From assembly GCA_018830005.1 (NCBI GenBank), contig JAHJTE010000004.1, positions 16,792-80,791 of the forward strand: DNA of 64,000 nucleotides, written 5' to 3'. Of the stretch, positions 3,849 to 25,156 are shown piece after piece. How positions within the stretch are numbered: position 1 is the first letter of the stretch; every line of letters begins with the position of its first letter. Position numbers and translations under genes: made by a program. Under the pieces are notes generated by a model that saw only the letters and a program-made list of their open reading frames with translations, made no database searches and was not told the origin of the DNA. The DNA comes from Candidatus Omnitrophota bacterium (GTDB lineage: Bacteria > Omnitrophota > Gorgyraeia > JAHJTE01).

Positions 3849-3862
3849 TTTATCGTTTTTGC

Positions 3863-6714: not shown

Positions 6715-6717
6715 AGC

Positions 6718-6984
6718 TTATACTTTATTTTTTTTCTCTAGAGCTTCTTTTAAGACTTTAAGTGCTTCTGCAATAGTAGTAATTTGAGGAATCTGTTCAT
6801 CTCTGATAGAGACCTTGAACTTCCGCTCAATCGCAACTGAAATCTCGATTGCTTTAATCGAATCAACGCCTAAATCCTTCCAAAAATTTGCATCTGGCTT
6901 TAATTCTTTAGTATCTCTACCAGTGACATTAGCGACTAATTCTATTAATTCTTGTTTAAGCTTATCAAGCATTTCTTCTGGCAT
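6718..6984 (-). CDS. acpP: Acyl carrier protein
   Basis: 88 aa. DLGVDSIKAIE phosphopantetheine-attachment Ser motif. Confidence 0.85.
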   Translation of the reverse strand: MPEEMLDKLKQELIELVANVTGRDTKELKPDANFWKDLGVDSIKAIEISVAIERKFKVSIRDEQIPQITTIAEALKVLKEALEKKNKV

Positions 6985-6991
6985 GTAGACA

Positions 6992-8206
6992 TCATCTCCT
7001 TTTGTATTTCTTTATTGCAAGTGAAGAATTATTGCCACCAAAGGCAAAACCATTATTCAAGGCAACATCTACTCTTTGTTTTCTTGCGGCATTAGGAACG
7101 CAATCGATATCACACTCAGGATCAGGCGTCTCAAAGTTTATTGTCGGAGCAATTACGTTATTTTCTACGCTTAAACAACAGACAATTGCTGAAATTGCAG
7201 AAGCCGCACCCATGGTATGACCCAACATTGACTTTATGGCGCTAACCGCTACCTTTCTGCCGTTGAAAACTTTTTTTATCGCTGCTGACTCTACTCTATC
7301 GTTATGCTTTGTGCCTGTTCCATGAGCACTTATATAATCTACATCATCAGGGGTTAAATCTGACTCTTTTAGTGTATTAATCATACAATCGACTATTCCT
7401 TCAACCTGAGGATTTGTCATATGAAAAGCATCACAGCTTAAACCATAACCTAATATTTCAGCATAAATAAGCGCATTTCTTTTAAGGGCACTCTCTAGGG
7501 TTTCCAATATTAGCATACCTGCCCCCTCACCTACTATCATACCTTTTCTATTCTTATCAAATGGCTGACATTTTTCAGGTGCTACAGCTCGTACTTGATT
7601 AAAGCCAGTAAAGGAAAGATAGGAAAATGCATCTGAGCCACCCACAATAACTAAATCTGCCTTATCCAATTGCAAGAGATCAAAACCATAACCTATGCCA
7701 TAATTACCAGCTGCACAAGCAGTAGTAAAAATGCGATTTATGCCCTTTGTTTTTAATTCAATTGCCATGCTAGAAGAAATATTATTTACAGGATATTGCA
7801 TTATAGACCACTTTTCCACTTTATCGTGTCCATGTTTTGTCCAAATAATATCCATTTCTTCTATTTCCTGGGCCTCGCCACCAGTTGTACCAATGCAGAT
7901 TGCTATACGTAGAGATCCAAGTCTATTAGCATTTAATTTGGCGTCGTCCAAGGCTAATTTTGCCGCAGCAATAGCAAGACGCGAAGCCCTACCCATCAAT
8001 TTTATCTTGTTTTTGCTCATGAATGATTCACAATTAAAGTCTTTAATCTCACCACCAAAATGAGTAAATTGATTCGTGGTATCAAATGACTCAACCAATG
8101 ATATACCGGATTTGCCTTTAATTAAATTGTCCCAAAAGACATCTTTACCGATGCCAATTGATGAAACGACTCCTAGACCTGTTACTACTACCCTTTTCTT
8201 TTTCAT
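6992..8206 (-). CDS. fabF: Beta-ketoacyl-ACP synthase II (FabF-like)
   Basis: 404 aa. Canonical Cys-His-His triad motifs TTACAAGNYGIG, AHGTGTKHND and GHTMGAAS. Confidence 0.85.
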   Translation of the reverse strand: MKKKRVVVTGLGVVSSIGIGKDVFWDNLIKGKSGISLVESFDTTNQFTHFGGEIKDFNCESFMSKNKIKLMGRASRLAIAAAKLALDDAKLNANRLGSLRIAICIGTTGGEAQEIEEMDIIWTKHGHDKVEKWSIMQYPVNNISSSMAIELKTKGINRIFTTACAAGNYGIGYGFDLLQLDKADLVIVGGSDAFSYLSFTGFNQVRAVAPEKCQPFDKNRKGMIVGEGAGMLILETLESALKRNALIYAEILGYGLSCDAFHMTNPQVEGIVDCMINTLKESDLTPDDVDYISAHGTGTKHNDRVESAAIKKVFNGRKVAVSAIKSMLGHTMGAASAISAIVCCLSVENNVIAPTINFETPDPECDIDCVPNAARKQRVDVALNNGFAFGGNNSSLAIKKYKRR

Positions 8207-8640
8207 TTTTTAACTGCAAATACTAACTCAGCCTCTGCTATCTGCTTATCTTTAACAAATGCTTTTGTACTAATAAAAGCGCCCGTTGGCAATAATTTTA
8301 CTGTTTCTGCTTCAAGGCTTAGCTGATCTCCCGGAAAAACAGGATGTATAAAACGAGCCTTTATTGAACCTAAATAATAATTTGGAACATTTACTAGCTC
8401 ATCCTCATATCCGCTGTGATAAAGCACAATGGAAGCCTGGGCCATGGCTTCAACAATTGAGGTGCCGGGCATTATAGGATTTCCAGGAAAATGACCCTGC
8501 AAAAAACTATCATTAATACTTACATTTTTAATCGCCACGACGCGTTTTCCTGGCTCCAACTCTATTACCCTATCAATTAAGAGCATTGGATGTCTATGTG
8601 GCAGAACCTTTTTTATTTGATCTATATCAAGTGTCTTCAT
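8203..8640 (-). CDS. fabZ: 3-hydroxyacyl-ACP dehydratase (FabZ/FabA hot-dog fold)
   Basis: 145 aa. HFPGNPIMPGTSIVEAMAQ catalytic His motif. Its start and stop overlap the neighbouring genes by 4 nt each. Confidence 0.85.
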   Translation of the reverse strand: MKTLDIDQIKKVLPHRHPMLLIDRVIELEPGKRVVAIKNVSINDSFLQGHFPGNPIMPGTSIVEAMAQASIVLYHSGYEDELVNVPNYYLGSIKARFIHPVFPGDQLSLEAETVKLLPTGAFISTKAFVKDKQIAEAELVFAVKK

Positions 8641-9875
8641 TTTAGTTTTCCTATTATTACCACTGTATTTGCCCCGTTAGGGCCAAAGGCATTAATCATT
8701 ATTCTGTTTAATTTATTCTTTCTACTTTTATTTGTTACGTAATTAAGATTGCAATCAGGATCTTTTTCCTGGTAATTTATAGTTGGCGGAATAAGGTCTT
8801 TGTTTAGAGCGCCGATAGCTGCAACTGTAGATAATCCACCTGAGGCACTAAATGTTTCACCTAAGATAGACTTAGGGGCAGTGATGCAAACCTCATCAGC
8901 AAAGTTACCGAAGACATCTTTAATAGCCTTTGTTTCAATTCGATCGGCGTCTTTAGTTGAGTTTGCATTTGCGAAAATGCAATCTATGTCTTCGGGTTTC
9001 AAATTTGCATCCGCTAGCGCCAATTGCATTGCCTTTACCATACCTTCGCCCTTTGGATTGAATCTGTAGAATTTAATCGGGTCAAAGCAAGAACCGATAC
9101 CAAGAACTTGGGCATAAATATTAGCCTTACGCTTTTTTGCAGAATCCAGTTCTTCTAAAATAAGAACAGTTGAGCCTTCAGAAAAAATAATGCCGTTTCT
9201 TCTTTTATCAAAAGGACAAGATAAAGGCTCGGGGTCACCGTTAAGACCAGATAGATAATTGAGCTTATAAAATCCAAGAAAGGTCTGAATGCAAAAATCT
9301 TCTACTGCACCCGTAACAACTGTATTTGTTCTTCCTAGATTTATAAAATCGCGCGCATAATCTAATGCGTCTAGGGCGGCACACATTCCTGTTGAAATTG
9401 TAGAATTAAAGCCTTTGATTTTAAATCTAATACCTATACGGCTTGCAGGAGAATTACCAACAGTGCTCGGGAAGACTGACGGATTAACATATCTGGGACC
9501 TTCCCTTAAAGATTCTTTGTCAAATTCTGAAATACTATGAAGACTCCCAAATGTCGTGCCCACAGAAACTCCAATCTGTTTAGTATTAGTTTCATTTATA
9601 TCTAATTTGGCATCGTCAATAGCAAGTTTTACAGCTGAGCTTAATAGAAGTGTCGCCCTGTCTAAATCCATTATGTTTTGAGTGTTCAATATTTGTTTAG
9701 GATTAAAATTGCTTATTTCGCCGCCAATTTTAACCTTTAGGTCTGAGGTATCAAACAGAGTAATGGGCTTAAATCCGGATTTCCCGTCCATAATGGATTG
9801 CCAGTATTCGTCTTTACCTATTCCAATAGGCGAGATGACGCCAATTCCGGTTATAACAGTTCTGCTCTTTTTCAA
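8637..9875 (-). CDS. Ketosynthase-like protein with degenerate His dyad (chain-length-factor-like / non-decarboxylating KS partner)
   Basis: 412 aa with thiolase fold and a Cys retained (STGMCAALDAL). The HGTGT box reads ANANST and the GH box reads GE, so both catalytic His are missing. Confidence 0.7.
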   Translation of the reverse strand: MKKSRTVITGIGVISPIGIGKDEYWQSIMDGKSGFKPITLFDTSDLKVKIGGEISNFNPKQILNTQNIMDLDRATLLLSSAVKLAIDDAKLDINETNTKQIGVSVGTTFGSLHSISEFDKESLREGPRYVNPSVFPSTVGNSPASRIGIRFKIKGFNSTISTGMCAALDALDYARDFINLGRTNTVVTGAVEDFCIQTFLGFYKLNYLSGLNGDPEPLSCPFDKRRNGIIFSEGSTVLILEELDSAKKRKANIYAQVLGIGSCFDPIKFYRFNPKGEGMVKAMQLALADANLKPEDIDCIFANANSTKDADRIETKAIKDVFGNFADEVCITAPKSILGETFSASGGLSTVAAIGALNKDLIPPTINYQEKDPDCNLNYVTNKSRKNKLNRIMINAFGPNGANTVVIIGKLK

Positions 9876-10615
9876 GTTGCTAGGCCTCCATCAACAATAA
9901 AAGTTTGGCCGGTTATGTAATCAGCTAAATCAGAAATTAAGAATTTGACTACTTTAGCTACCTCTTCAGGATTTCCAAACCTTCCTAAAGGAATTCGTTC
10001 TAGCTCCTTGTCTTTCATGGTTTCATTCAAACTAGACAACATATCCGTTTTGATAAACCCAGGAGCAACTGCATTTACCCTTATGTTGTAAGGTGCCACC
10101 TCTTGAGCCAATGCCTTTGTAAAGCCTAATATAGCAGCCTTAGCAGCCGAATAATTCGTCTGCTTTGCTATACCCCTAATACCGCTCACTGAACTTATAT
10201 TAACTATTACACCAGATTTTCTTTTTAAAAAATCCACTATAATTGAACGAGTAATATTAAAGACTCCTCCTAAATCAACCCTTATTACCTTTTGCCAATC
10301 TTCTTGCTCCATAAACGCCAAGGCCTTATCGTTAATGATACCGGCATTATTAACCAAGATATCTATGGAATCGAAATCTTTTTTAATGTCATCGACCCAT
10401 TTCTTAACACTCTGGAGGTCTTCGATGTTAACTTCGTATCCTTTTACCTTAACCTCATCTGATGATAACTCTATCTCAATCTCTTTAGCCAAATCTCTGC
10501 TTTTTAGATAGTTAAATGCTATGTTAACTCCCTCTCTGGCAAGTTCATTGACTATTGCTCTGCCAATGCCTCTCGTACCTCCAGTAACGATGGCTGTTTT
10601 ATTCTTACCCTTCAT
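9872..10615 (-). CDS. fabG: 3-oxoacyl-ACP reductase (SDR family, FabG-like)
   Basis: 247 aa. TGGTRGIGRAI Rossmann motif, NNAG, and YSAAKAA catalytic Tyr-x3-Lys. Confidence 0.85.
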   Translation of the reverse strand: MKGKNKTAIVTGGTRGIGRAIVNELAREGVNIAFNYLKSRDLAKEIEIELSSDEVKVKGYEVNIEDLQSVKKWVDDIKKDFDSIDILVNNAGIINDKALAFMEQEDWQKVIRVDLGGVFNITRSIIVDFLKRKSGVIVNISSVSGIRGIAKQTNYSAAKAAILGFTKALAQEVAPYNIRVNAVAPGFIKTDMLSSLNETMKDKELERIPLGRFGNPEEVAKVVKFLISDLADYITGQTFIVDGGLAT

Positions 10616-12869: not shown

Positions 12870-13952
12870 TTATAATTCCTTGATAATCGCCTCGGCCATC
12901 TCGCTGGTGCCTACTGCAGTGGGATCATTGCGGTCAGGCTTCAAATCATAGGTTACAGACTTACCTTCTTTTACTACCTTGATTAATGCATTCTTTAATC
13001 GTTGACTTGCTTGTTTTTCATTTAGATAATCTAGCATCATTACTGCAGATAGTATTGTTGCCGCAGGATTTACCTTGTTCTTCCCAGTATACTTCGGAGC
13101 TGCGCCGTGAACAGGTTCAAATAACGCTAATTCATCTCCAATATTTGCACCCGGGGCCACCCCTAAACCTCCTACTAAGCCAGCGCAAAGATCAGAGATT
13201 ATATCTCCATAAAGATTAGGCAGTGCCAAGCAATCAAAATTCGTGGGCCGAAGCACAAGCTGCATTGATAAATTATCTACTATGGTCTCCTCAAAATCAA
13301 TTTTCCCTTTGTATTTAGAAGCGATCTGGCGGCCGCATTCCAGAAACAATCCATCAGAATACTTCATAATATTGGCTTTATGAACTGCTGTAATTTTTTT
13401 CCTTTTATGTGCAATTGCATATTCAAAGGCAAAGGTAAATAATCTTTTTGAAGCTGATTCAGAAATTGGCTTTAGAGAAATCGCAGAATCAGACTTTATA
13501 TCCCTGCCAGTTGTCTTTTTCGTAAGATTGATAAGCCCTTTTACCTCTTTTGAGCCTTTCTCAAATTCAATTCCGGCATATAGATCTTCTGTATTCTCCC
13601 TGAATATTAATATATCAATGTCAGGATTAATGCTTCTTATTCCAGGATATGCCTTGGCAGGACGCAGGCAGACAAACAAATCCAGTTTTTGACGCAACTG
13701 AACATTAACAGAACGATATCCGCCTGCAACTGGAGTGATAATCGGCCCTTTAAGGGCAACTTTGTTCTTTCTGATGGAATCTAGAACCTCTTGAGGTAGA
13801 ATCTCGCCCTTCTCTTTTAAGGTAACGCTGCCGGCATTCTTTATTTCCCAATCTATCTTTACACCGGTTGCATCCACGCATTTTCTCGCAGCAGCGGCAA
13901 CTTCAGGTCCAATGCCATCACCAGGAATTAAGGTAACTTTGTGTGTACTCAT
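12870..13952 (-). CDS. leuB: Isopropylmalate/isocitrate/homoisocitrate dehydrogenase family enzyme (LeuB-like)
   Basis: 360 aa. N-terminal IPGDGIGPEV, then NLYGDIISDLCAGLVGGLG. Adjacent to leuD. Confidence 0.75.
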   Translation of the reverse strand: MSTHKVTLIPGDGIGPEVAAAARKCVDATGVKIDWEIKNAGSVTLKEKGEILPQEVLDSIRKNKVALKGPIITPVAGGYRSVNVQLRQKLDLFVCLRPAKAYPGIRSINPDIDILIFRENTEDLYAGIEFEKGSKEVKGLINLTKKTTGRDIKSDSAISLKPISESASKRLFTFAFEYAIAHKRKKITAVHKANIMKYSDGLFLECGRQIASKYKGKIDFEETIVDNLSMQLVLRPTNFDCLALPNLYGDIISDLCAGLVGGLGVAPGANIGDELALFEPVHGAAPKYTGKNKVNPAATILSAVMMLDYLNEKQASQRLKNALIKVVKEGKSVTYDLKPDRNDPTAVGTSEMAEAIIKEL

Positions 13953-14452
13953 TTTAATTTTATTGTCCCGTACTTTTTGAAATGGTTGACTATTCCTCCA
14001 TCTGCAATTAGTCTCTGCATAAATGCAGGAAGAGGCCTAATGTTTATTATAGACTCTGTCTTAATATTGCGAATAACGCCTTTATCAAAGTCCAATTGCA
14101 ACTGATCATTATCCTTAATTGCCGAGGTATCAGCCTCAATTAAAGGCAAGCCAATATTAAAAGAATTTCGATAGAAAATTCTTGCAAAATTCTTAGCAAT
14201 AAGGGCAATAACGCCAGCTTCTTTAATAACTAAAGGGGCCTGTTCCCGAGAAGAGCCCATACCAAAGTTCTCACCCGCAACCAGGATTGTTGAACCTGGG
14301 GTTATCTTATTTATAAAATCAGGATCAAGGTCTTCCATTAAATGCTGTGAAAGTTTCTTTATATCTGTAATTTGAAATTTGTATCTTCCAGATATAATCG
14401 TATCCGTGTTGATATTATCACCTAATTTAATTACTTTTCCGACTAGTTTCAT
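13949..14452 (-). CDS. leuD: 3-isopropylmalate dehydratase small subunit (archaeal-type LeuD / aconitase swivel domain)
   Basis: 167 aa. [12 protein letters not shown], then [14 protein letters not shown]. Confidence 0.8.
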
Positions 14453-14460
14453 CAGAGATA

Positions 14461-15507
14461 TTATAGGCTCTTAAATTCAGCTGGATTTTTTACCTTACTT
14501 AGAGCAACCTCTTCTGTGATCAAACCCTGGGTATATAATTCCTTCAATGATGTTTCCATCAATTTCATTCCGAATTGTTTTCCTGTCTGCATTAATGTCG
14601 GGATCTGCTCAATCTCTTGTTCTCTAATCAGGTTTCGTATTCCAGGTGTGCCGACCATAATCTCAGTTGCTGCTACTCTTCCCTGACCAGTCGCACGCGA
14701 CAGGAGCAGCTGTGAGACAACACCTTGCAAGCAGTCAGCCAACTGCAATTTGACCTGTTGCTGCTGATGTGGAGGAAAAACATCAATGATTCTTTCGATT
14801 GTCTGAGGCGCATCAGGAGTATGCAATGTTGTTAAAACCAAATGACCTGTTTCTGCAGCAGTTAGGGCTGTGGAAATTGTTTCAAGATCCCTCATCTCCC
14901 CTACCACAATAACGTCAGGATCTTGACGCAAGGAGTGCTTTAGCGCCTCTGAGAACGAATGGGTATCAGCAAAGACCTCACGTTGTTTAATAACACTTTT
15001 CTTGTTATGATGTATATATTCAATTGGGTCTTCAATAGAAATTATCATATCCTGCCTTTCTTCGTTTATCAAATCCACCATTGCCGCCAGGGTTGTGGTC
15101 TTACCTACACCCGTAGGGCCAGTAATCAAAACTAGACCGTTTGGCCTTCTTGCTAAGGCAGCAAGTATCTTAGGTAGACCCAATTCTTCCAGCGTGGGAA
15201 TCAATAAAGGTATTCTTCTAAAGGCGGCCTCAACCGCACCCTTTTGAACATGGACATTAACTCGGAAACGATCGATGCCAGGTAAGGATAGAGATAAATC
15301 TAGTTCCCATTGCTTTTCAAATTTTTCTTTTTGTGCATCATTTAAGATGCTGTAGATCATTTTCTTTAATTTCTCTCGGTTTAGTTCTTCACGCTTAGTA
15401 TAGATTAACTTTCCATCAATACGCAAAATTGGAGGCATATTCTCTGTTAAGTGCAAATCAGAGGCCTTGCTTTTGATTGTTAGCATTAGAAGTTCTCTTA
15501 AGTCCAT
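14461..15507 (-). CDS. pilT: Twitching-motility ATPase PilT (type IV pilus retraction, secretion ATPase family)
   Basis: 348 aa. Walker A GPTGVGKTTTLAAM, Asp box, His box. PilT length. Confidence 0.8.
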   Translation of the reverse strand: MDLRELLMLTIKSKASDLHLTENMPPILRIDGKLIYTKREELNREKLKKMIYSILNDAQKEKFEKQWELDLSLSLPGIDRFRVNVHVQKGAVEAAFRRIPLLIPTLEELGLPKILAALARRPNGLVLITGPTGVGKTTTLAAMVDLINEERQDMIISIEDPIEYIHHNKKSVIKQREVFADTHSFSEALKHSLRQDPDVIVVGEMRDLETISTALTAAETGHLVLTTLHTPDAPQTIERIIDVFPPHQQQQVKLQLADCLQGVVSQLLLSRATGQGRVAATEIMVGTPGIRNLIREQEIEQIPTLMQTGKQFGMKLMETSLKELYTQGLITEEVALSKVKNPAEFKSL

Positions 15508-15687
15508 AATCTTCTCCTTTTAATTTTTTAATGACAACTAAATGTATATTATTATACCATTTTTATCTGAAAAACATATTCCCTATCAAGTTTAACAGCG
15601 ATAGCCTTATAGAGAACAAAATCATAAAACAAAAACGCCTTAATCTAATTATCCTTAAAGATGAAGGATTACTTCACTTACAAAAAA

Positions 15688-16125
15688 TTATTTGATAGCT
15701 CTGTTTGCTTGTCTCTTGATCCAATCTTTTACTTCTGCTTTATTTAAATAATAAAAGGAATACATACTCGCTACCATTAAAACTATATTAAATGCTATTG
15801 GACTATTAAAACCTAATGTTGCTGAAATAGTTATTATACTAAGTAGTCCATAAAATATATATGTTACAGACAAAATTAATAGTAATTTTCTTGCCCACTC
15901 TTTAATTCGTAGCAGCCCTCTTGCAGATACTAAAGTAGCAATACTTAAAATTCCCAAAGGTAAAACTCCTGAAATAAAAGCTGTAATCCTATATTGCAAA
16001 TCATGTTTATTGATAATTGTCCAAATGGTCATCGGTAGTGTCAATAGATATAAAATAGCAATTATTGAATAAAAGGTAGAAATAAATGAAATTGCCTTCG
16101 GTATCACTGATTCTTTGTACAACAT
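15688..16125 (-). CDS. Small 4-TM membrane protein, candidate immunity protein for the adjacent RHS toxin
   Basis: 145 aa with four hydrophobic helices. It starts 14 nt after the RHS stop on the same strand. No recognisable family. Confidence 0.45.
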   Translation of the reverse strand: MLYKESVIPKAISFISTFYSIIAILYLLTLPMTIWTIINKHDLQYRITAFISGVLPLGILSIATLVSARGLLRIKEWARKLLLILSVTYIFYGLLSIITISATLGFNSPIAFNIVLMVASMYSFYYLNKAEVKDWIKRQANRAIK

Positions 16126-16139
16126 AAACCCCTCCTTAT

Positions 16140-19100
16140 TTATTTTATTTCAGGATAAAAAGTTGCTTTACCCACGGCTCGTAAATAATCAATTAAATTC
16201 CAGCCCATATAATTCACTGTATGAGCAGAATATTTAATCGTATACACTGTAGATTCTTCGACAGCTGCCTCGGCTAACTTAGCGGTTGCATGTGCGCCAA
16301 GATAAGGACTCTGCGATACTATCTGCCAATATACAAAGTTCTTCGTCATATTATCGCGAAATTCATAGTAGGCATTAGTTAATCCTTGAATATAAAATTT
16401 ATAATGAGGGTAGTTATATTGCCAGTAATAATATGAAAATCTGTCCAGCCATGATCTCTGTCTATAAAATCCAAATGGGTCAATAAAATTTATAGGATTA
16501 TTGGATACGCAAGGATATAAATTTAATGTCTGTGGAGATATCATTATACCACTTACTGGATCCTCCTGTAGGAATCTCCCGATAGCTGCATCATAATACC
16601 TTGCCCGGTAGTAATAGAGTCCACTTTCAAGATCAAGCTCTCTCCCTGTATACGTGTAAGGATTTATCAAAGAGCCAGTCTTAGCCTTGATATTTCCAAA
16701 AGAATCATAAAGATATGTCGGGACCACTATACCTGTACTATCAGTAAGCTCAGTAATTGACCCTAGACCATCTACATGGTACCAATAAACCCCTCCTCCT
16801 CTTTCCACCCTCAAAGGCTCATCAATACCTGGACCATGGAGGTATTTGGCTCGGAGAGTATTGATTCCATCGTATTCTGCAATAATGTCTTCATTATCAT
16901 AGACGTATCTAGTAATAGTGCCATTGACATTCTTCTCGATTCTTCTGCCTAAGCCGTCATAGGTATATTGAGCAGATGTTAGGTTTGGAAAATTTATCCT
17001 AATCAACTGATTTTCAAGGTTGTAAGTATATGTTGTTATCTGTAAGGTAGATTTGTTAGTTTTAGAAGTTAGGTTTCCATTATCATCATAACTATAAGTA
17101 TATTCATCATCTTCTAAGAGTCTGTTGGCATCATCGTAGGTATAATTTGTTGGATTACGGTTGCCTACTGAGTCATAGGCATAGTTTTCAGCTGGATTCT
17201 CAGGTTGAGGATGACTAGCATTAGTTAAGCGATAAATGTCATCATAGGTGTAGTTGTGAGTGCCATCACTATCAGTCATGGTTAATCTATTGCCAGCATT
17301 ATCATAAGTATAAGAGTAAGAATCTAAAGAAACTAACCTACTTGCTAAATCATAGGCGTAGCTGGAGGTTGTTCCATTAGCCAAGTTTAAACCTGTTCTT
17401 CTAGAAAGTTCATCATAGTTAAAATGAGCCAGGTTTTGATCTAAAGCATCAGTGATGTCAATGAGGCGGTTGAGTGAATCATAGACGTATTTTGTAACAA
17501 TGTATTCAGGATCAGTTAAGGTTAAGCGATTGGAATTCTTGTCATAGGTGTAGGATATGATTGTTCCTGGTTGATGACCTAAATCAAGCGTAGTTGATGT
17601 TTCTATTCTTGAGGCCAAGTCATAGATCATGCTTAGTGATGAATCAGGCGTAGTTACTGAGGTAAGGTTGTTTACAGAGTCATAGTCATATGTTACGTTC
17701 AAACCTGATCCAGATTTATTACTAAGGCGATTTATATCATCGTAGCTGAAGGTTATTGTATCAGCATTAAAGTCTGCGGTGGTTTCAAGATTGCGATTTA
17801 AATCATAGGAAAACGTTTTAGTGTTACCAAGGGGATTAGTTATTGTCTTAAGCTGGTTAATTTCATCATAGGTAAAGTTTGTTTCATTTAAATTGGCGTC
17901 AATTATCTTCTTGAGGTTTCCGGCCTCGTCGTATTGGTACTGGGTGATGTTTGTTTCTGGGTCTGTTACCTTGGTTAGGCGGTTTATATCATCATATTCA
18001 AAGGTTGTAGTGTTGTTTTCGGCATCTTGAATAGTAAGGATATTGCCAGCACTATCATAAGTAAAGGTTGTAGTATTGCCCTCTGGGTCAGTGGTAGTCT
18101 TCAAATTGTAAGTATCAGTATAATAGGTAAAGATAGTTTGATTCTCTACTGCAGTACCAAAACCAGAAATAATCTTAGTTACTAATCCCCTACTATTATA
18201 TTCCATCTTAGTAATATTTCCTTGAGCATCCGTAATCTGAATAGGGTTACCATTTTCATCATAATCAATATTTGTAGTGTTGTTTTCTGGGTCTGTGATG
18301 GATGTTATCTGATTAAAGTCTGGCTCATAGCTGAAGGCGGTGGTAGCTGATATGGAGTCTTCAGTTGAAGTCAAGAGATTGCCTTTCCAATCGTAGGTCA
18401 TTATAACAGTGGAACTATTAGGTCTAGTGATCTTTGTGGGATTATCGTTTACATCTCGCGCTATAATTGTAGTTTGATTTAGGGCATCTGTAATCTGGCT
18501 ATATGCGCCGAATTTAGAGGTTTGAGAGGTTGTAGAATAATTTTTGCCGTCAATTATAGTCTCAACTATATCATCAGGCCTTACAACTGGAGCTGGATTA
18601 TCAGGAGTACCTACACCAGGCGCTAGATCATTGATTAGGCCCTGAACATCCGACGGAAAGAATTGAATTATCTCTTGAGGTGTATTTGGGAAAAGCATAC
18701 GCGTTACTCTTCCATAGCTATCATACTCATACTGCGTTGTAAATAAACGTTCATTAGTTTCAGAGGTTAAAAGGTGATTAGTATAACTAAATGTTTTAGT
18801 CGTACTATCAGGGTTAGAAATTTGAACTAAGTCGTTATTTTCATCAATAATAAACTGAGCGATTCTTCCTGCAGGGTCAGTTATGGATTTGAATTTCCCT
18901 TCAGCTGAATAGATAAACTGATAGGTGTCACCTGTAGGAAGAACAATCTTGCTTAATTCCTCCTCTTTACCATCAGAGTTTGCGTCTATGTAGAGATAGG
19001 CCGTACTATTTCCATTGCGGTCAACTATAGAAGTCTGCAAACCATGGGCATTAAAGTTGATTTGGGTACCATCTTTTAATTTACGTCTGTAAGTACCGTC

Positions 19101-22091
19101 GAGATTTTGAGTAATAAATGAGTAGTCACCAAAAGAAACAACATAATCCCGTTTTTCTAGATAATCGCCGTTAAAATTAGCGGCAATTAAGGACGAAGGT
19201 GAAGTGCCTACTTGAACATCCTCTCCAATAGAGAAGGTTCCATTACCATTATTATTAAGTAGTATAGAGAGATTGTTGTCAGCGAAACTACCTACAGCGA
19301 GGTCGGGAAGTGTATCTCCATTGAAATCAGCAGTGACTATCGCCCCAGGATTGGTTCCTACAATAATATCAGTTTGGGCAGAGAAAGTCGTGCCATCACT
19401 GTCGTTAAGTAGTATAGAAACGTTATTATCATTCGCATTAACTACAGCGAGGTCGGGAAGTGTATCTCCATTGAAATCAGCAGTAGCTATCGCCCAAGGA
19501 CCCCCACCTACAAGAGTAGGATATGGGTAGGTTGAAAATGTACCATTACCATTTCCAAACAAAATAGAAACAGCATTATAGCTATACAAGTCGCGAGTGA
19601 TCGCAAGATCTGGAATAGCATCTCTATTAAAATCAGCTGAAGCTATTGAATAAGGATATAGACTAAAAGTTCCTATGTTCGAAAATGTACCATCGCCGTT
19701 ACTTAAAAAGGTACGTAGGTAATCCCCAGTGACTTCGGCAATGTCAAAAAGATTATCTCTATCAAAATCAGCTGTGGTTATTCCTCGAGCGCTATTTCCT
19801 ATGAATATATCAGGCTGTACTAAGAAGGTACCGTCTCCGTTACCAAGAAGAATAGAAGTATGGTTGTCGTTTACATTACCTACAGCGAGGTCGGGAAGGC
19901 TATCGCCATTGAAATCAGCAGTAGCCATTAAGATGGGGCTGACCCCTACGGGAACATCAGGCTGAACTGAGAATGTGCCATCGTCATTACCTAGAAAAAT
20001 AGAAAGATCATCATCGATGTAATTAGCCACAACAAGATCAGGAATAGTGTCTATATTAAAATCAGCAGTGGCTACTACCCGAGGTTGATTCCCCACAGTA
20101 ACATTAGGCTGAGCTAAGAAAGTACCGTCTCCATTACCAAAGAGAATAGAAATATTATCGTCATATGTATTAGCTACAGCGAGGTCTAAAATAGGACTCT
20201 GTTGAAAATTAAACACCATACTTGAACCATTGCCTTCAGTTAAAAGAATTGAACCATCAGCGTCAAAATGAAGTCTTTGTAAACCTTGTAAACTCCATCC
20301 AGCACCAAAAGGAGAATTTTGCTGATTGTTGACAATCAATTTTTCCTTGACTTCTTCGCTTAAAGGCACTGGCTCTATGGTAGGAACGCCTGTATCAGAA
20401 ATTGGATCTCCGGCAAAACGGTCTGTTGTCCAATAAGTTACATTAGTGTAATCATTAGAAACTTCTATAATATAAGGATAACTTCCCGTAGAAAGAGTCT
20501 GTCCTTGCGAATCTTTAGCATCCAAGAGATAAGCGTATCTAACTTCTCCCTCTACTCCTTGATAGGTTGCCTGGATTTGCCTATCGGCAATTTTTACTTT
20601 AAAGGTAGTAGTATCCGGGATATTAGTGGCCACTGGATCGAGGTCAGTTTCAATACAGATTAAACTTGAGGGTTGAGCAGTAAGTGAGTTATAGATTAGT
20701 TTTAGACTATCTTTCTTTCCTAATCTTATAATGCCAGCTAAGTCATGTTCAGTAGTAAAACTACCTGATTTCACCCCCACCCCTGGATCCCTAGCTTCTT
20801 CAAACTGTTTATCTATATCTTGAGTTCTATTTGCGATTAGTCTTGGACTTTTGTCTTTTGGTGGTGGCGGAGCTGGAAAATTCAAATCCCATGGAGAAAA
20901 ATGGTCAATTTCAAATTCAAGCCACTGACCATCACTTGAGACAGAACCCATAAGACCTGTATCTTCCCACTGGTGCGTTTCTTCATTGTAAACTCCTCCC
21001 GGAATTGGTGTTCCAGGAGCAAAACCTAAAGTGTTAGCCACTTTCATAGTAACTGGCTGCTGAAACGTAGTAACTTTCCTTCTGGTAGTTGTGGATTCAG
21101 CTTCTAGATTAAGGGCGTAGGTAAAGAAACTAGTTTCTGGTAATTCATCGGGCAATGCCTTTCCTTTCTGATATTTAGTAGAGTTTACATCTGCTGCTTC
21201 TGTTACTGCACCAGCTGGAAAAACAAGCTCTATTTCTCCAGTAGAATTAACATGTGTTCCGCCTTCAGGAAGAATAGTAGTTACTACTGGGTCTAACGGT
21301 GTGAGATAAACAGAGGTTACAGCTGAATGTCTGCTGGCTACTACTTCCACTGTTCTCTGAGCAGAGGTAAAGTCACCTTTACTAACATCAATGGTAACAG
21401 TCAGCTTACCTGATTCTGGGAAAAGTGACTGAAAAGAAAAGGAGAATTTTCCATCTATATCAGAGGTAGTACTTCCAACAAAGTCGGGTGAGGTAACTAC
21501 AGCATTAGCAAGAGGAGTTTCAGTATCTGCAGCATAGACTATACCGCTAATAAAGCTTGTAGGCTCTACAATCTCTATACTCTCTGTATCACTCCAACCA
21601 GTAGCAGCAATCGTATCGCAAGTTGTACCAGCATAAGCTTGATTTGCAGAAAAACGCTGTCTCAGCCAAGCAAATATCTTCTGTAAAAAGTCCGCTCCTT
21701 TAGTTATGCCCTGTGTAGCAGGAAGAGCAGCTTTGACGCGGTAATAATAAGTGCCGACAGTTCCTTTGTTAACAAAGAGTTGAGAAACATTCAAAGTATA
21801 GCTAACAGGGTTGCTAAACTGGGGGTTATCTGCTTCTTCTAGCTTATAGGCTTCAGCACAGTCTACATCAGTCCAATCTACTAGATAAGCTGCATCAAAA
21901 TTAGGATCTATGGGCTTGTTTAAATGAGGTGGTTGAGGCGTTGTTTCTGGAGGTAATTCTGGAATATCTTCAGTGGGAGGGGCATCTCCGCAAAAAGCAG
22001 GCTTAGTAAACAAGAAGCCGTGAGAAACAAAAAAGCCTAAAATCAAAATAACGACCAATAATGACTTAAAAACACAACTCTTCATTCTCAT
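16140..22091 (-). CDS. Giant secreted RHS/YD-repeat polymorphic toxin with N-terminal signal peptide, CarboxypepD_reg-like domain, FG-GAP/VCBS repeats and variable C-terminal toxin tip
   Basis: 1983 aa. Hydrophobic N-terminus. About 7 FG-GAP-like repeats of the form TADFNGDxLPDLAV...GNGDGTF. Dozens of YD repeats (YDxxGNL, YTYDxxNRL), then the RHS core ending GRFLQEDP...NPINFIDPFGF, followed by a unique tail of about 110 aa. Confidence 0.85.
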   Translation of the reverse strand: MRMKSCVFKSLLVVILILGFFVSHGFLFTKPAFCGDAPPTEDIPELPPETTPQPPHLNKPIDPNFDAAYLVDWTDVDCAEAYKLEEADNPQFSNPVSYTLNVSQLFVNKGTVGTYYYRVKAALPATQGITKGADFLQKIFAWLRQRFSANQAYAGTTCDTIAATGWSDTESIEIVEPTSFISGIVYAADTETPLANAVVTSPDFVGSTTSDIDGKFSFSFQSLFPESGKLTVTIDVSKGDFTSAQRTVEVVASRHSAVTSVYLTPLDPVVTTILPEGGTHVNSTGEIELVFPAGAVTEAADVNSTKYQKGKALPDELPETSFFTYALNLEAESTTTRRKVTTFQQPVTMKVANTLGFAPGTPIPGGVYNEETHQWEDTGLMGSVSSDGQWLEFEIDHFSPWDLNFPAPPPPKDKSPRLIANRTQDIDKQFEEARDPGVGVKSGSFTTEHDLAGIIRLGKKDSLKLIYNSLTAQPSSLICIETDLDPVATNIPDTTTFKVKIADRQIQATYQGVEGEVRYAYLLDAKDSQGQTLSTGSYPYIIEVSNDYTNVTYWTTDRFAGDPISDTGVPTIEPVPLSEEVKEKLIVNNQQNSPFGAGWSLQGLQRLHFDADGSILLTEGNGSSMVFNFQQSPILDLAVANTYDDNISILFGNGDGTFLAQPNVTVGNQPRVVATADFNIDTIPDLVVANYIDDDLSIFLGNDDGTFSVQPDVPVGVSPILMATADFNGDSLPDLAVGNVNDNHTSILLGNGDGTFLVQPDIFIGNSARGITTADFDRDNLFDIAEVTGDYLRTFLSNGDGTFSNIGTFSLYPYSIASADFNRDAIPDLAITRDLYSYNAVSILFGNGNGTFSTYPYPTLVGGGPWAIATADFNGDTLPDLAVVNANDNNVSILLNDSDGTTFSAQTDIIVGTNPGAIVTADFNGDTLPDLAVGSFADNNLSILLNNNGNGTFSIGEDVQVGTSPSSLIAANFNGDYLEKRDYVVSFGDYSFITQNLDGTYRRKLKDGTQINFNAHGLQTSIVDRNGNSTAYLYIDANSDGKEEELSKIVLPTGDTYQFIYSAEGKFKSITDPAGRIAQFIIDENNDLVQISNPDSTTKTFSYTNHLLTSETNERLFTTQYEYDSYGRVTRMLFPNTPQEIIQFFPSDVQGLINDLAPGVGTPDNPAPVVRPDDIVETIIDGKNYSTTSQTSKFGAYSQITDALNQTTIIARDVNDNPTKITRPNSSTVIMTYDWKGNLLTSTEDSISATTAFSYEPDFNQITSITDPENNTTNIDYDENGNPIQITDAQGNITKMEYNSRGLVTKIISGFGTAVENQTIFTYYTDTYNLKTTTDPEGNTTTFTYDSAGNILTIQDAENNTTTFEYDDINRLTKVTDPETNITQYQYDEAGNLKKIIDANLNETNFTYDEINQLKTITNPLGNTKTFSYDLNRNLETTADFNADTITFSYDDINRLSNKSGSGLNVTYDYDSVNNLTSVTTPDSSLSMIYDLASRIETSTTLDLGHQPGTIISYTYDKNSNRLTLTDPEYIVTKYVYDSLNRLIDITDALDQNLAHFNYDELSRRTGLNLANGTTSSYAYDLASRLVSLDSYSYTYDNAGNRLTMTDSDGTHNYTYDDIYRLTNASHPQPENPAENYAYDSVGNRNPTNYTYDDANRLLEDDEYTYSYDDNGNLTSKTNKSTLQITTYTYNLENQLIRINFPNLTSAQYTYDGLGRRIEKNVNGTITRYVYDNEDIIAEYDGINTLRAKYLHGPGIDEPLRVERGGGVYWYHVDGLGSITELTDSTGIVVPTYLYDSFGNIKAKTGSLINPYTYTGRELDLESGLYYYRARYYDAAIGRFLQEDPVSGIMISPQTLNLYPCVSNNPINFIDPFGFYRQRSWLDRFSYYYWQYNYPHYKFYIQGLTNAYYEFRDNMTKNFVYWQIVSQSPYLGAHATAKLAEAAVEESTVYTIKYSAHTVNYMGWNLIDYLRAVGKATFYPEIK
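19140..20230 (-). repeat. Intragenic tandem repeats of about 150 bp encoding the FG-GAP units, two of them near-identical at nucleotide level
   Basis: The 43-mer ctacagcgaggtcgggaagtgtatctccattgaaatcagcagt occurs at 19292-19334 and 19442-19484, exactly 150 bp apart. Diverged copies sit at about 19880 and 20174. Confidence 0.8.
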
Positions 22092-22116
22092 GCCTCCTTT
22101 AGAAAAACATAAAGGA

Positions 22117-23382
22117 TTATTTCAAAAACTTCCTTGGATCAGTTATTTTCCCTTCAATTACACTGGCTGCCACAGTTGCTGGCGAGGCAAGGTAAATATT
22201 GGCATTGGGATTACCCATCCTGCCTTTAAAATTACGGTTTGCTGTTGAAATAACGTTTTCCCCATCAGCAGGAACGCCATTGTGCGTTCCTACGCAGGGT
22301 CCACAACCAGCAGCAACGACAACAGCGCCAGCCTTAATAAATGTTTCAATCAGCCCTAATTTGAGTGCTTCCAGGTAAATACTGCTGCTTGCAGGCGCAA
22401 TGATAAATTTTACGCCTTTTGCTACAGATTTACCTTTTAGAATTTTTGCAGCAATTTTTAAATCGCTAAGTCTTCCGTTGGTACACGTACCAAGATAGCC
22501 TTCCTGAATTTGCTCGCCCTCTACTTCCTCAACCGATTTTGCATTATCTGGACTATGAGGCGTTGAAACTATAGGCGTTAGCCCTAATAAGTCTATCTCT
22601 TTTTCATCCACATAATGAGCATCTTTATCTGCAGTCTGTGGCTCTAATCTTTGCCTTGTTCGCCCCTTCAACCATTTATTAGTTACCTTATCAACTGGTA
22701 AAAACCCACATTTAGCACCTACCTCAACTGCCATATTTGCGATTGTGAATCTACCGTCCATATCTATCTTTGCCAGGGGCAAGCCGTAAAACTCAAGGGC
22801 TTTATATGTGGCACCATTTGCTCCTAACAAACCAGTTATATACAAAATTACGTCTTTAGCAAAGACACCTTTTGGAATTTTCCCTTTTAGGGTAATTTTA
22901 ATCGTCTCCGGAACCTTAAACCAATTCAAACCGCTGGCTAAAGTGACTGCTAAATCAGTCGAGCCAACTCCAGTTGCGAATACACCCAAGGCGCCGTATG
23001 TACAGGTATGCGAATCTGCACCAATCACAAGATTCCCAGGAAGAATCTTACCTTGTTCTGGAATAATCTGATGGCATACACCACAGCCTATTTCAAATAA
23101 AGTAACATTCTTTTCCTTAGCAAACGCTCGCATCCTGCTATGAACAGCTGAAACTCCAAGATTTGGAGCAGGGCTATTATGATCAATTACCATGCAGAAT
23201 TTTTCTTTGTCAAAGACCTCTTCTCTGCCAAGCTGTTTGAATCTATCAATGATTATACTGCTTGTTCCATCCTGGCCAAAACAAAAATCTACATTAGCCA
23301 GGACAAAATCACCAGCACAACAATCTTGGGAACTATGTTTAGAAAAAATCTTCTCAGCGATAGTCTTGGCTGTCTTACTCAT
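22117..23382 (-). CDS. leuC: 3-isopropylmalate dehydratase large subunit (archaeal-type LeuC, aconitase family)
   Basis: 421 aa. Aconitase-family Fe-S ligand motifs (CHQI, GADSHT, GCGPCVG). Separated from leuD by the RHS locus. Confidence 0.8.
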   Translation of the reverse strand: MSKTAKTIAEKIFSKHSSQDCCAGDFVLANVDFCFGQDGTSSIIIDRFKQLGREEVFDKEKFCMVIDHNSPAPNLGVSAVHSRMRAFAKEKNVTLFEIGCGVCHQIIPEQGKILPGNLVIGADSHTCTYGALGVFATGVGSTDLAVTLASGLNWFKVPETIKITLKGKIPKGVFAKDVILYITGLLGANGATYKALEFYGLPLAKIDMDGRFTIANMAVEVGAKCGFLPVDKVTNKWLKGRTRQRLEPQTADKDAHYVDEKEIDLLGLTPIVSTPHSPDNAKSVEEVEGEQIQEGYLGTCTNGRLSDLKIAAKILKGKSVAKGVKFIIAPASSSIYLEALKLGLIETFIKAGAVVVAAGCGPCVGTHNGVPADGENVISTANRNFKGRMGNPNANIYLASPATVAASVIEGKITDPRKFLK

Positions 23383-24547
23383 GGGAAAGTGACTCGATGA
23401 ATTTCTTTATTCGCCTGCAACCTTCTATTATTTCATCGTTATTCGTGGCAAAGCTTAAACGCACATGAGACTTTGATCCAAAACTCTCCGCCGGAATACA
23501 AGCAACAAACTCCTCATCAAGTAGCCTACTGGCAAATTCCATAGGTGCAATTTTTAAGCCTGAGATATTGACGAAGACATAAAAAGCACCCGCTGGCTTA
23601 AAGAAAGAAATCCCGGGGATCTCTCCCAGTTTTTGTGTCAGGCAATCTCTTCTTTTCGAAAATTCATTGATAAAAGGTAGGATTTCGCTATCTTTCATGG
23701 CCAAGGCAGAAACTGCTGCCTTTTGGCTTATTGAGGCAGGATTACTCGTAGAATGACTCTGCAGACTAGCAACGGCTGCTGCTATTTCCTTGGGTGCGCC
23801 TAAAAATCCAATTCTCCAGCCTGTCATCGAATAGGTCTTGGAGACGCCATTTATAGTAATCGTTTGTTTGTAGATTTCGTTATTTAATGAAGCAATTGAT
23901 GTGTGTTTTTGCCCGTCAAAAATTAATTTTTCATATATTTCATCACTCAATATGAAAGTCTTGTTTTTAGCTACAATTTCAGCAATCTGCATTAGCTCAG
24001 CCTCCGAATAAACAACTCCTGTTGGATTCGAAGGGCTATTTATGATTAAGGCCTTTGTCTTTTTATTGATTAATGACTCCAGTGCCTTTTGATCTATTTT
24101 AAAGCCTTGTTTTTGCTTTGTTTCGAGAACGACGGGTTTGCCACCGGCTAGCTTTATCATTTCAGGATAGCTCAACCAGTAGGGAGAGATAATTATGACT
24201 TCATCATGGGGATTAACAATTGCCTGTAGACTGTTGTAAAGGGAATGTTTTGCTCCTGAAGAAATGATAATTTCATCTAGGGAATATTCGAGATTGTTAT
24301 CTCTTTTGAATTTTTCTTGAACTGCTTTTTTTAGTTCTGGGGTACCGCTGGCAGGGGTATATTTTGTGAAACCGTCACGTATTGCCTGAATTGCAGCTTC
24401 TTTTATTTGTTCGGGTGTATCGAAGTCGGGTTCGCCGGCAGCAAAGTTGATTATGGGCCTGCCTTGCTTTTTTAGAAGCTTGGCTTTCGCAGTGATGGCT
24501 AAAGTCGAGGAGGGTTTAATTTCATTTAGCCTCTTGGCCTTTTCCAT
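23375..24547 (-). CDS. Class I/II pyridoxal-phosphate aminotransferase (aspartate/aromatic aminotransferase-like)
   Basis: 390 aa. NFAAGEPDFDTP, SKTYSMTGWRIGF PLP-lysine region. Confidence 0.8.
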   Translation of the reverse strand: MEKAKRLNEIKPSSTLAITAKAKLLKKQGRPIINFAAGEPDFDTPEQIKEAAIQAIRDGFTKYTPASGTPELKKAVQEKFKRDNNLEYSLDEIIISSGAKHSLYNSLQAIVNPHDEVIIISPYWLSYPEMIKLAGGKPVVLETKQKQGFKIDQKALESLINKKTKALIINSPSNPTGVVYSEAELMQIAEIVAKNKTFILSDEIYEKLIFDGQKHTSIASLNNEIYKQTITINGVSKTYSMTGWRIGFLGAPKEIAAAVASLQSHSTSNPASISQKAAVSALAMKDSEILPFINEFSKRRDCLTQKLGEIPGISFFKPAGAFYVFVNISGLKIAPMEFASRLLDEEFVACIPAESFGSKSHVRLSFATNNDEIIEGCRRIKKFIESLSHE

Positions 24548-24553
24548 AAGATT

Positions 24554-25156
24554 CTAAGGTTCTTGTTTTCGCCTGAAGATTTTACCTATACCACCAAAAA
24601 ACTTACCACCTTTCTTTTTATCTTTTGGTAGTTCTTTTACAGCTGGTGTTGGCTTCTGCTTTAGGGGTTTCTCCTCTTTTGCTGTTGGTGGTGCTTTTGG
24701 CTTTTCTTTTGGCGGCGTAACTTGTTTTGGGGCCTGCACCTTCTCTTGTGTTACTGCCTTTTCTTCTTTTTTTGCTTTGGGAGGTGATTTCTTTTCTGGC
24801 AAGCGCTTTATTAATTCAAAGATAACAAGATTAGCATTATCGCCTCTGCGTCTTGAAAGACGCAAGATACGCGTGTATCCACCATTTCTCTCTTTGAATA
24901 AAGGAGCGAATTCAATGAATAATTTCTTAACCAAAGCGTGGTCTTTTAATTTCTGAAAAACCCTCCTTCTGTTAGTCAAATTATCAACCCTAGCTAGAGA
25001 AATAATGCGTTCAACAGCAGGAGCGACAACCTTGGCCCTGGAATATGTCGTGGTTATTCGCTGATACTTAAAAATGGAGCGGCATTGATTAAGGATGAGT
25101 GATTTTCTCTCACCTTCAGTAAGGTTTAATCTTGTTCTCTTTTTGGCATGGCGCAT
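24554..25156 (-). CDS. rplQ: 50S ribosomal protein L17 with 80-aa Lys/Pro/Glu-rich C-terminal extension
   Basis: The N-terminal 115 aa match L17 (MRHAKKRTRLN...YTRILRL). The tail is PKAKKEEK...PKEKPKAPP... Confidence 0.9.
   Translation of the reverse strand: MRHAKKRTRLNLTEGERKSLILNQCRSIFKYQRITTTYSRAKVVAPAVERIISLARVDNLTNRRRVFQKLKDHALVKKLFIEFAPLFKERNGGYTRILRLSRRRGDNANLVIFELIKRLPEKKSPPKAKKEEKAVTQEKVQAPKQVTPPKEKPKAPPTAKEEKPLKQKPTPAVKELPKDKKKGGKFFGGIGKIFRRKQEP

Follow-up and report, generated by a model that had tools for sequence, protein, structure and literature searches.

A probable teneurin-like RHS polymorphic toxin system, with a rare helical tip and a putative four-helix immunity protein, in a housekeeping array of Omnitrophota

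When a very large protein built of RHS/YD repeats is encoded directly ahead of a small membrane protein, the question arises whether the two genes constitute a toxin and its immunity protein, and, if so, where such a toxin would act. This question is raised by a locus in a stretch of 64,000 nucleotides (nt) from a Candidatus Omnitrophota bacterium (assembly GCA_018830005.1, contig JAHJTE010000004.1, positions 16,792 to 80,791), hereafter the window, in which an RHS/YD-repeat gene (16140..22091, minus strand) is followed by a gene for a 145-residue membrane protein with four predicted helices (15688..16125, minus strand). An earlier note, made from the letters of the window alone, had read this pair as a toxin–immunity arrangement, a reading that gains support from the hypervariability of the C-terminal tip of the RHS protein and from the linkage between this tip and the four-helix protein. 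Toxicity and immunity are inferred here from architecture and linkage, and on that footing we consider it very probable that the tip and the four-helix protein pair as toxin and immunity protein. That the whole represents a two-gene, teneurin-like polymorphic toxin system inserted into an Omnitrophota housekeeping array is, in our judgement, probable, if with somewhat less assurance.

The behaviour of the tip among close relatives is the first line of evidence. Besides P0002, which is the window protein as recovered in a different assembly, a full-length search returned a paralogue from the same metagenome-assembled genome (MAG; P0003) and four orthologues (P0004–P0007). Over the aligned region, P0003–P0006 are 58–85% identical to the window protein and P0007 43% (43–66% for the orthologues P0004–P0007), with the paralogue reaching 85% over the shell. 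All five homologues have the signal peptide, an N-terminal trunk of ~630 residues and the shell in common with the window protein, and in all five the sequence after the DPxG motif that closes the Rhs core is unrelated: four end in tails of 98–165 residues, and the paralogue ends three residues after DPFGL. The tail of about 110 residues that had been placed at 16143-16465 in the earlier note was measured as 108 residues (1876–1983; 16143..16466, minus strand), and, far from being conserved in all orthologues, it is hypervariable among close homologues, which diverge right after DPxG. When their DNA is compared, the window gene and its paralogue are homologous over 22100–20220 and 19076–16559 (86% identity in the latter segment), and the homology stops at 16559, some 30 codons short of the cleavage motif. 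The GC content is ~0.30–0.31 at the 5' end of the tip, 0.39–0.41 in mid-tail and 0.24–0.32 over the four-helix gene, with flanks at ~0.39–0.41. Since the homologues are unrelated after DPxG, DNA homology to the paralogue breaks off at 16559 and GC content drops at the junction, the tail is a swapped-in module and not a conserved structural part of the protein. As for the paralogue, an in-frame TAG stands three codons after DPFGL (L001, 13551–13871), and the frame runs on for about 100 codons, called as a 96-residue open reading frame (ORF); this stop could reflect read-through, a gene split in two or a tip inactivated by a nonsense mutation.

The gene that follows the RHS gene differs from relative to relative as well. 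In the loci of four relatives, which lie at four different genomic sites, the RHS gene is directly followed by a small ORF of 96, 120, 169 or 214 residues, and these ORFs are unrelated to one another and to the four-helix ORF of the window, most of them not encoding membrane proteins. Behind the small ORF come orphan RHS-core fragments and further small ORFs, in one locus beside an IS200-type transposase. This is the classical RHS layout of main gene, immunity gene and orphan cassettes, of which the window locus is a minimal form, orphan cassettes being frequent in RHS toxins but not obligatory: the orphan tip and immunity cassettes that the earlier note had raised as something to look for are found in 4/4 of the relatives' loci, but not in the window.

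The four-helix gene, in turn, accompanies the tail. When 1.84 billion protein cluster representatives were searched exhaustively with phmmer, only two true homologues of the tail were recovered, so that its earlier description as unique is nearly correct, two remote homologues being the exception. One of them, P0066, is a protein of 508 residues with the tail domain at residues 405–501 (46% identity, E 1e-22), and the other, P0067, has 131 residues (E 2e-6; 48.6 bits compared with a maximum of 9.5 for shuffled sequences); neither contains RHS repeats. A third candidate, P0068, was discarded as a spurious match to a nine-fold repeat protein, and neither a word-index search with the tail nor back-translated pattern scans of metagenome and genome collections with the tail alignment returned a match. 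In both contigs (L005 for P0066, L006 for P0067) an ORF for a protein with four transmembrane (TM) helices lies 23–28 nt downstream of the tail homologue. Over 134 residues, the ORF in L005 and the window ORF share 36% identity (pairwise E 3e-18), and the one in L006 scores 14.5 bits against the joint hidden Markov model (HMM) of these two, a score reached by 0/2000 full and 0/2000 block shuffles. Absence or lack of linkage of this ORF in relatives, which would have spoken against a toxin–immunity pair, is therefore not what is seen, as a homologous 4-TM ORF follows both tail homologues. Because both of these non-RHS proteins precede such an ORF, the tail domain and the 4-TM gene can be regarded, judging from the sequences, as a portable cassette that is carried on three different scaffolds; and because the 4-TM gene tracks the tail, while the RHS scaffold with other tips has other downstream genes, the cassette behaves as a toxin–immunity cassette would. 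Both families are very rare and previously undescribed. The contig of P0067 is itself an orphan-tip array: the truncated gene ahead of P0067 is accompanied by a small membrane ORF of its own, the peptide KALLPQARSSDEVM occurs both in this gene and at the start of P0067, and a Y1 transposase follows. In L005 (1–2531), P0066 and its 4-TM partner come immediately after the 3' end of a gene resembling those for tyrosine recombinases, and this cassette may ride on an integrative element.

What, then, can be said of the two putative partners? The four-helix protein was described in the earlier note as a 145-residue protein of no known family that begins 14 nt downstream, and both statements hold: the distance from the RHS stop to its ATG is exactly 14 nt, with a strong Shine–Dalgarno sequence, AAGGAGG, 6 nt upstream of the ATG, and searches against Pfam, NCBIfam, PHROGs, PADLOC and PDB gave nothing significant, with only sub-threshold Pfam matches (E 0.027 and 0.15). 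A word-index search with the ORF recovered itself alone; the identical sequence is annotated as a hypothetical protein in a Candidatus Omnitrophica MAG. The protein has four hydrophobic segments, modelled with low confidence from the single sequence as helices 7–39, 43–70, 76–103 and 109–144. Its lysines and arginines are clustered in loop 2 and at the C-terminus, which suggests an N-in/C-in topology, and the two loops that would face outwards are very short. Its position and its co-occurrence with the tail domain in 3/3 known cases are those of a candidate tip-specific immunity gene, and the presence of an immunity gene would imply that the producer itself is sensitive to the toxin.

The tip has a mass of 13.1 kDa and an isoelectric point of 9.0; 24% of its residues are aromatic (17 Tyr), only 4 are Gly, and its grand average of hydropathy (GRAVY) is -0.53, with no hydrophobic, TM-grade segment above threshold. 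It belongs to no Pfam or NCBIfam family, and its PDB profile matches lie only at E>0.2. AlphaFold2 (AF2), given a three-sequence alignment, predicts two long helices (6–50 and 54–103) that form a hairpin, with a predicted local distance difference test (pLDDT) score of 90.2 for the best of five models and a range of 65–90 over all five; a Foldseek comparison of the model with PDB found nothing below E=1. In the same alignment, positions R9, N18, H21, Q48, N85 and D93 are conserved, together with the motif NY(M/L)GW(N/S)xID. An HEPN-like Rx4-6H motif was considered and rejected after inspection of the alignment. The tip is thus devoid of enzyme-like features, and nothing suggests that it is an enzyme.

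Whether the toxin would act, or be neutralised, in or at the cytoplasmic membrane, by perturbing or depolarising it or by binding one of its components, is a matter on which we find ourselves evenly poised. A membrane site is favoured because the putative immunity protein is polytopic with tiny extramembrane loops, and it would resemble the situation of Tse5-CT and Tsi5, of the pore-forming colicins and of a membrane-active tip of a bacterial teneurin-like protein (TLP). Pore-forming colicins have small inner-membrane immunity proteins with three to four TM helices (Cai/Cei), encoded beside the toxin and neutralising it within the membrane, and the window likewise encodes a small polytopic membrane protein beside the putative toxin. 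The colicin pore domain is a bundle of ten helices and ~200 residues with a hydrophobic hairpin, and PDB profile and Foldseek searches found no similarity between it and the tip. Among windows of 108 residues taken from the six RHS proteins, the tip ranks within the lowest 0.7% for interfacial hydrophobicity, but this lends little support to membrane action, because its homologue P0066 does not stand out in this way. Nor does the tip have the hydrophobic, glycine-zipper-rich and membrane-spanning character of Tse5-CT-type pore formers; since it is hydrophilic and its aromatic and interfacial traits are not conserved in P0066, a pore former of the Tse5 or colicin type is not indicated by the sequence.

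The same hydrophilicity, with no TM segment, is what a toxin with a soluble cytoplasmic target would display, for example a stoichiometric inhibitor, in which case the 4-TM protein would block entry through the inner membrane; the invariant polar residues R9, N18, H21, Q48, N85 and D93 and the motif NY(M/L)GW(N/S)xID do resemble a binding surface. We nevertheless regard this explanation as rather unlikely, as the Foldseek search of PDB gave no precedent for an enzymatic toxin built as a two-helix hairpin, and where a polymorphic toxin acts in the cytoplasm its immunity protein is normally a soluble binder (PMC3482391, PMC13018210).

As to the RHS protein itself, the ORF of 1983 residues named in the earlier note is indeed found at 16140..22091; its first ATG (22091), however, is only 1 nt away from the Shine–Dalgarno sequence, compared with 7 nt for the second (22085), and a near-identical protein in the NCBI annotation has 1981 residues and starts MKSCVF. 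For these two reasons, the true start is probably 22085, which gives a protein of 1981 residues. That the protein would be secreted, as the earlier note held, is supported by a predicted Sec-type signal peptide at residues 1 to ~34 (21990..22091, minus strand), in which a basic stretch is followed by a hydrophobic core with a Kyte–Doolittle peak of 2.4. This N-terminus is kept in the homologues, with AFC or AFS before a Pro-rich linker, and signal peptidase would be expected to cut after AFC.

Behind the signal peptide, a series of modules can be delineated. Residues 181–258 (21318..21551, minus strand) form a transthyretin (TTR)/carboxypeptidase-regulatory-like domain, recognised as Pfam CarboxypepD_reg at E 3.5e-5, below the gathering score; the same family is also precomputed for the orthologue P0007. 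Next comes a ZU5-like domain at residues 265–406 (20874..21299, minus strand), the equivalent of the 'TIP' domain of bacterial TLPs. Pfam ZU5 matches 4/5 aligned homologues (best E 4e-8) but not the window protein's own segment, and a profile of this region matches residues 522–635 of BiTLP, the TLP of Bacillus inaquosorum (PDB 9ifo/9pt5), at E 1.7e-9. The two proteins have the motif HFSxPWDxNxP in common, and its HFS, at residues 397–399 in the window protein, is kept in 5/6 proteins, with SFS in the paralogue. In ZU5 domains of the PIDD and Nup98 type, HFS is the site of autoproteolysis. The 'TIP' domain of bacterial TLPs appears ZU5-like and carries the HFS motif. The TLP paper makes no mention of ZU5, reports no cleavage of BiTLP at the HFS site and places the N-terminal cut elsewhere, at G723/S724; in BiTLP the 'TIP' domain has the TTR domain before it and the FN-plug after it (PMC13018210). 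In the corresponding place, the window protein has a region of ~220 residues (~407–624; 20221..20873, minus strand) that is conserved in all five homologues and gives no PDB match by profile search, its sole family match being a weak one to DUF6531 (E 1.5e-3); from its position, which fits that of the FN-plug, it is presumed to be the N-terminal plug of the shell.

The remainder of the protein follows the layout given in the earlier note, with FG-GAP/VCBS repeats, a YD shell and an RHS core ending in DPFGF all recovered by Pfam and TIGR matches. An FG-GAP (VCBS) beta-propeller occupies residues ~625–1005 (19077..20220, minus strand), with seven stretches of FG-GAP_3, the former VCBS family (E 1.8e-36), and a match to FG-GAP (E 1.3e-15). 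The long YD/RHS-repeat shell typical of RHS polymorphic toxins spans residues ~1006–1794 (16710..19076, minus strand), with Pfam RHS_repeat at E 1.5e-74 and the TIGR01643 YD repeat at E 5e-51, and it is related to solved Rhs cages: the best PDB relatives of the whole protein are Rhs 8h8a (E 4e-53), teneurin-like 9pt5 (E 1e-38) and Tse5 8cp6 (E 5.5e-31). The Rhs-associated core, which forms the C-terminal plug with its aspartyl-protease motif (16467..16709, minus strand), is matched by TIGR03696 at residues 1795–1874 (E 3e-21). It ends in NPINFIDPFGF, which follows the pattern PxxxxDPxG(L) of such cores, with DPFGF at residues 1871–1875, and both candidate catalytic aspartates, D1844 and D1871, are present in a bipartite motif that reads DPVS-X23-DPFG. 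A motif DPxG-X18-20-DPxG with two catalytic Asp residues is known from Tse5 and BiTLP (PMC10684867, PMC13018210), and self-cleavage of the window core is predicted to occur after F1875.

The propeller is a second swappable module. It is of the FG-GAP type in the window protein, P0004 and P0007, and of the YNCE/lactonase type in P0003, P0005 and P0006, and DNA homology to the paralogue is missing exactly over the propeller interval; it is from this difference in type, together with homology breaks at the module borders, that we conclude that propellers are exchanged. More distant matches (P0009, P0010 and P0019) carry NHL. In one orthologue, among P0006 (L003, 8001–13565) and P0007 (L004, 8001–14099), dockerin repeats stand in place of the first ~170 residues, which suggests surface anchoring of the cohesin type.

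Put together, these modules would give the following course of events. The RHS protein, of ~220 kDa, would be exported by Sec, to judge from its signal-peptide-like N-terminus, and its TTR-like, ZU5/TIP and FG-GAP propeller modules would display it on the cell surface or bind the target. The YD repeats, by homology to the cages of Rhs, Tse5 and BiTLP, would close a shell around the 13-kDa tip, inside which the aspartyl protease of the core (D1844, D1871) would cut after DPFGF and free the 108 residues. The tip, as a new and very rare family with a long Tyr/Trp-rich helical hairpin and no enzyme-like features, would be the toxic cargo, and the 145-residue four-helix protein, seated in the inner membrane, would be its specific immunity protein.

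A system of this kind, that is, a Sec-exported, teneurin-like RHS polymorphic toxin, is already well known. Bacterial TLPs have polymorphic toxic C-termini of ~15 kDa and a downstream immunity gene, and the 92-residue tip of BiTLP permeabilises E. coli membranes only when sent to the periplasm (PMC13018210, 2026, Raoelijaona et al.). The window protein shares with BiTLP the Sec signal, the TTR-like and TIP domains, a beta-propeller before the YD shell, the cleavage motif of the Rhs core, a polymorphic tip of ~13–15 kDa and a putative immunity gene directly downstream, so that the TLP combination of TIP domain (E 1.7e-9 to BiTLP), YD shell (E 1e-38 to 9pt5), small C-terminal domain (13.1 kDa) and downstream immunity gene is complete. 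It differs in that its propeller is FG-GAP (YNCE-type in sister proteins) in place of NHL, whose HMM belongs to the three by which TLPs are defined; in that an FN-plug is not detectable by sequence; in that Omnitrophota lie outside the six phyla reported for TLPs (PMC13018210); and in that its tip and immunity families are unrelated to the tips tested in that study. Sec-dependent polymorphic toxins with an architecture of signal peptide, ZU5, beta-propeller, RHS and variable toxin had already been catalogued (Zhang et al. 2012, PMC3482391), and the window protein agrees with these ZU5/propeller RHS toxins in its architecture, in the adjacent immunity gene and in the orphan cassettes of its relatives. 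Unlike them, it has no SpvB or TcdB/TcaC partner that we could find; the window tip and immunity protein lack a match in Pfam, NCBIfam and PDB, with the >150 toxin and >90 immunity families of that survey not searched directly.

Tse5 (RhsP1) of Pseudomonas aeruginosa is an Rhs cage that delivers a pore-forming tip (PMC10684867). Likeness to Tse5/Tsi5 extends to the cage (8cp6, E 5.5e-31) and to aspartyl-protease self-cleavage, predicted for the window protein, that frees a small non-enzymatic tip (PMC10684867, PMC9637101); an immunity protein embedded in the membrane would be expected by analogy. Tse5, however, has a PAAR-like N-terminus and is fired by a type VI secretion system (T6SS), whereas the window protein begins with a signal peptide and is not accompanied by T6SS genes; and Tse5-CT is an integral-membrane domain that inserts spontaneously into lipid layers, in contrast to the hydrophilic, aromatic-rich tail described here. 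Among the relatives, the tail of P0007 is glycine-zipper-like and hydrophobic, reminiscent of Tse5-type pore formers.

The gene content of the window was scanned over 1–25 kb and 54–64 kb. No genes of a type V (T5SS), type VI or type VII (T7SS) secretion system were found in these parts, and by Pfam and NCBIfam the RHS protein has no PAAR, VgrG, two-partner secretion (TPS) or LXG domain. A T6SS-delivered Rhs effector, with a PAAR- or VgrG-binding N-terminus and T6SS genes, is accordingly not what these scanned parts encode, nor is a CdiA/CdiB T5SS, for whose TPS domain, filamentous haemagglutinin repeats and CdiB neither the protein nor its neighbours gave a Pfam or NCBIfam match. The contact-dependent interbacterial competition to which the earlier note assigned the pair is an assumption, and the target could be kin, a competitor, or a prey or host cell. 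Among the Omnitrophota are predators, confirmed or suspected, with loci resembling type II secretion systems beside giant surface proteins (bioRxiv 10.1101/2023.11.21.568195), and for this reason a role against a host or prey is as plausible as one in kin competition.

A further explanation is that the RHS protein is mainly a teneurin-like adhesin or recognition molecule of an episymbiotic or predatory cell, and the tip a non-toxic structural or signalling peptide. The teneurin-like build with adhesion-type N-terminal modules, and the dockerin of one orthologue, would suit this, as would the same-genome paralogue, which stops three codons after the cleavage motif, so that a tip-less cage appears to be tolerated. 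Hypervariable tips, tip-specific downstream genes and orphan arrays are nonetheless the signature of a conflict system, and the aspartyl protease motif, lost in metazoan teneurins (PMC13018210), is kept here; we hold this explanation to be very improbable. An equally slight chance is given to the 4-TM ORF as a holin-like or export accessory of the RHS protein, or as an unrelated membrane protein: holins help to release Tc and clostridial toxins, a Sec-exported cage does need an exit from the cell, and the ORF is small, has four TM helices and ends in a strongly basic stretch, but we reject this, as the ORF co-varies with the tip and not with the scaffold (homologues with the same scaffold have other downstream ORFs), its homologues are found behind the tail domain of proteins that are not RHS proteins, it matches no holin (PHROG, Pfam) or defence family, and a Pfam scan found no endolysin or spanin gene near it.

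Several points weigh against the pair of tip and four-helix protein as a membrane-directed toxin and its antidote, and against the system around them. The first aspartate motif is DPVS with a 23-residue spacer, as opposed to the usual DPxG-X18-20. No machinery is at hand to carry a Sec-exported cage across the outer layers of the producer or into a target. The 64-kb window holds no orphan copy of the core, the tail or the immunity gene, and the family of tail plus 4-TM protein has three known members, the linkage being 3/3 of these. As to the tip, it is hydrophilic overall (GRAVY -0.53) with no transmembrane-grade segment, P0066 displays neither its aromatic richness nor its unusual interfacial propensity, and the hairpin model is built on 3 sequences, with three of five AF2 models mediocre (pLDDT 65–76). 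We advance only tentatively, as a possibility that is less likely than its converse, that the hairpin represents a new class of small non-enzymatic toxins acting at the cytoplasmic membrane and countered by the 4-TM protein, used by ultra-small and possibly predatory or episymbiotic Omnitrophota from a Sec-exported cage with no injection apparatus. If this were true, the cage itself, through its trunk and propeller, would have to mediate both target binding and release of the cargo, and the system would offer a simple model for the opening of surface-displayed RHS/teneurin-like cages.

The genomic setting bears on the two genes as a unit. They lie between leuC, which encodes an aconitase-type large subunit (22117..23382, minus strand; Pfam Aconitase, E 7e-102) and forms the upstream border, and pilT, which encodes a PilT-family ATPase (14461..15507, minus strand; TIGR01420, E 1e-141), forms the downstream border and is followed by leuD and leuB. 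Synteny was sampled at 80 loci around LeuC homologues in species-representative genomes. In ~27 Omnitrophota species the order is L17–aminotransferase–leuC–pilT–leuD–leuB, with a gap of 15–235 nt between leuC and pilT, and RHS sequence was found at the leuC–pilT site in 0/80 loci. Because this order occurs with no RHS gene in ~27 Omnitrophota species, the RHS and 4-TM genes are a lineage-specific insertion of ~6.5 kb (15508..22116). In other phyla recovered by the LeuC search, leuC and leuD are adjacent. PilT was considered as a component of the toxin system and rejected, as pilT stands between leuC and leuD in the ~27 genomes that have no RHS gene there; its presence here is ancestral. The two flanking intergenic regions share a direct repeat of 10 nt (TATGTTTTTC on the minus strand, at 22102–22111 and 15569–15578), which may be a target-site duplication, although this is weak evidence and the repeat could be due to chance in AT-rich sequence. 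The leuC–pilT spacers of relatives are not conserved, and the ancestral insertion site cannot be reconstructed from them. In a promoter and terminator scan of the locus, sites were no more frequent than in shuffled sequence.

The view of how polymorphic toxins work is left unchanged by these findings. New are the rare helical-hairpin tip family and its cognate 4-TM family, the occurrence in Omnitrophota, the swapping of propellers and the delimited insertion in the leuC–pilT–leuD array. Teneurin-like Sec-exported RHS toxins would thereby be extended to a candidate phylum of suspected microbial predators or parasites, in which close relatives exchange propellers, tips and the genes partnered with the tips independently of one another, and the conserved array provides the exact borders of the mobile unit. 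No tip of the Omnitrophota relatives matches a Pfam toxin family, and, since none matches a known toxin family, the phylum can be seen as an untapped reservoir of effector domains.

The remaining scanned parts of the window are of a housekeeping nature, with genes for an aminotransferase, leuC, leuD, leuB, signal peptidase I and fatty-acid-type synthases, besides aromatic amino-acid genes. Sizes and order of further ORFs fit ribosomal-protein and rpoB/rpoC operons, of which L17 alone is the Pfam-checked member. The presence of a PilT retraction ATPase inside a leucine-biosynthesis array beside a ribosomal operon (12870–25156; loci L007–L055) is in itself odd. Finally, the region 2400–10615 contains three to four ketoacyl-synthase genes together with genes for a FabA-like dehydratase, a ketoreductase and two flavoproteins resembling amine oxidases or phytoene desaturases, and this cluster may encode an unusual lipid or polyene pathway.

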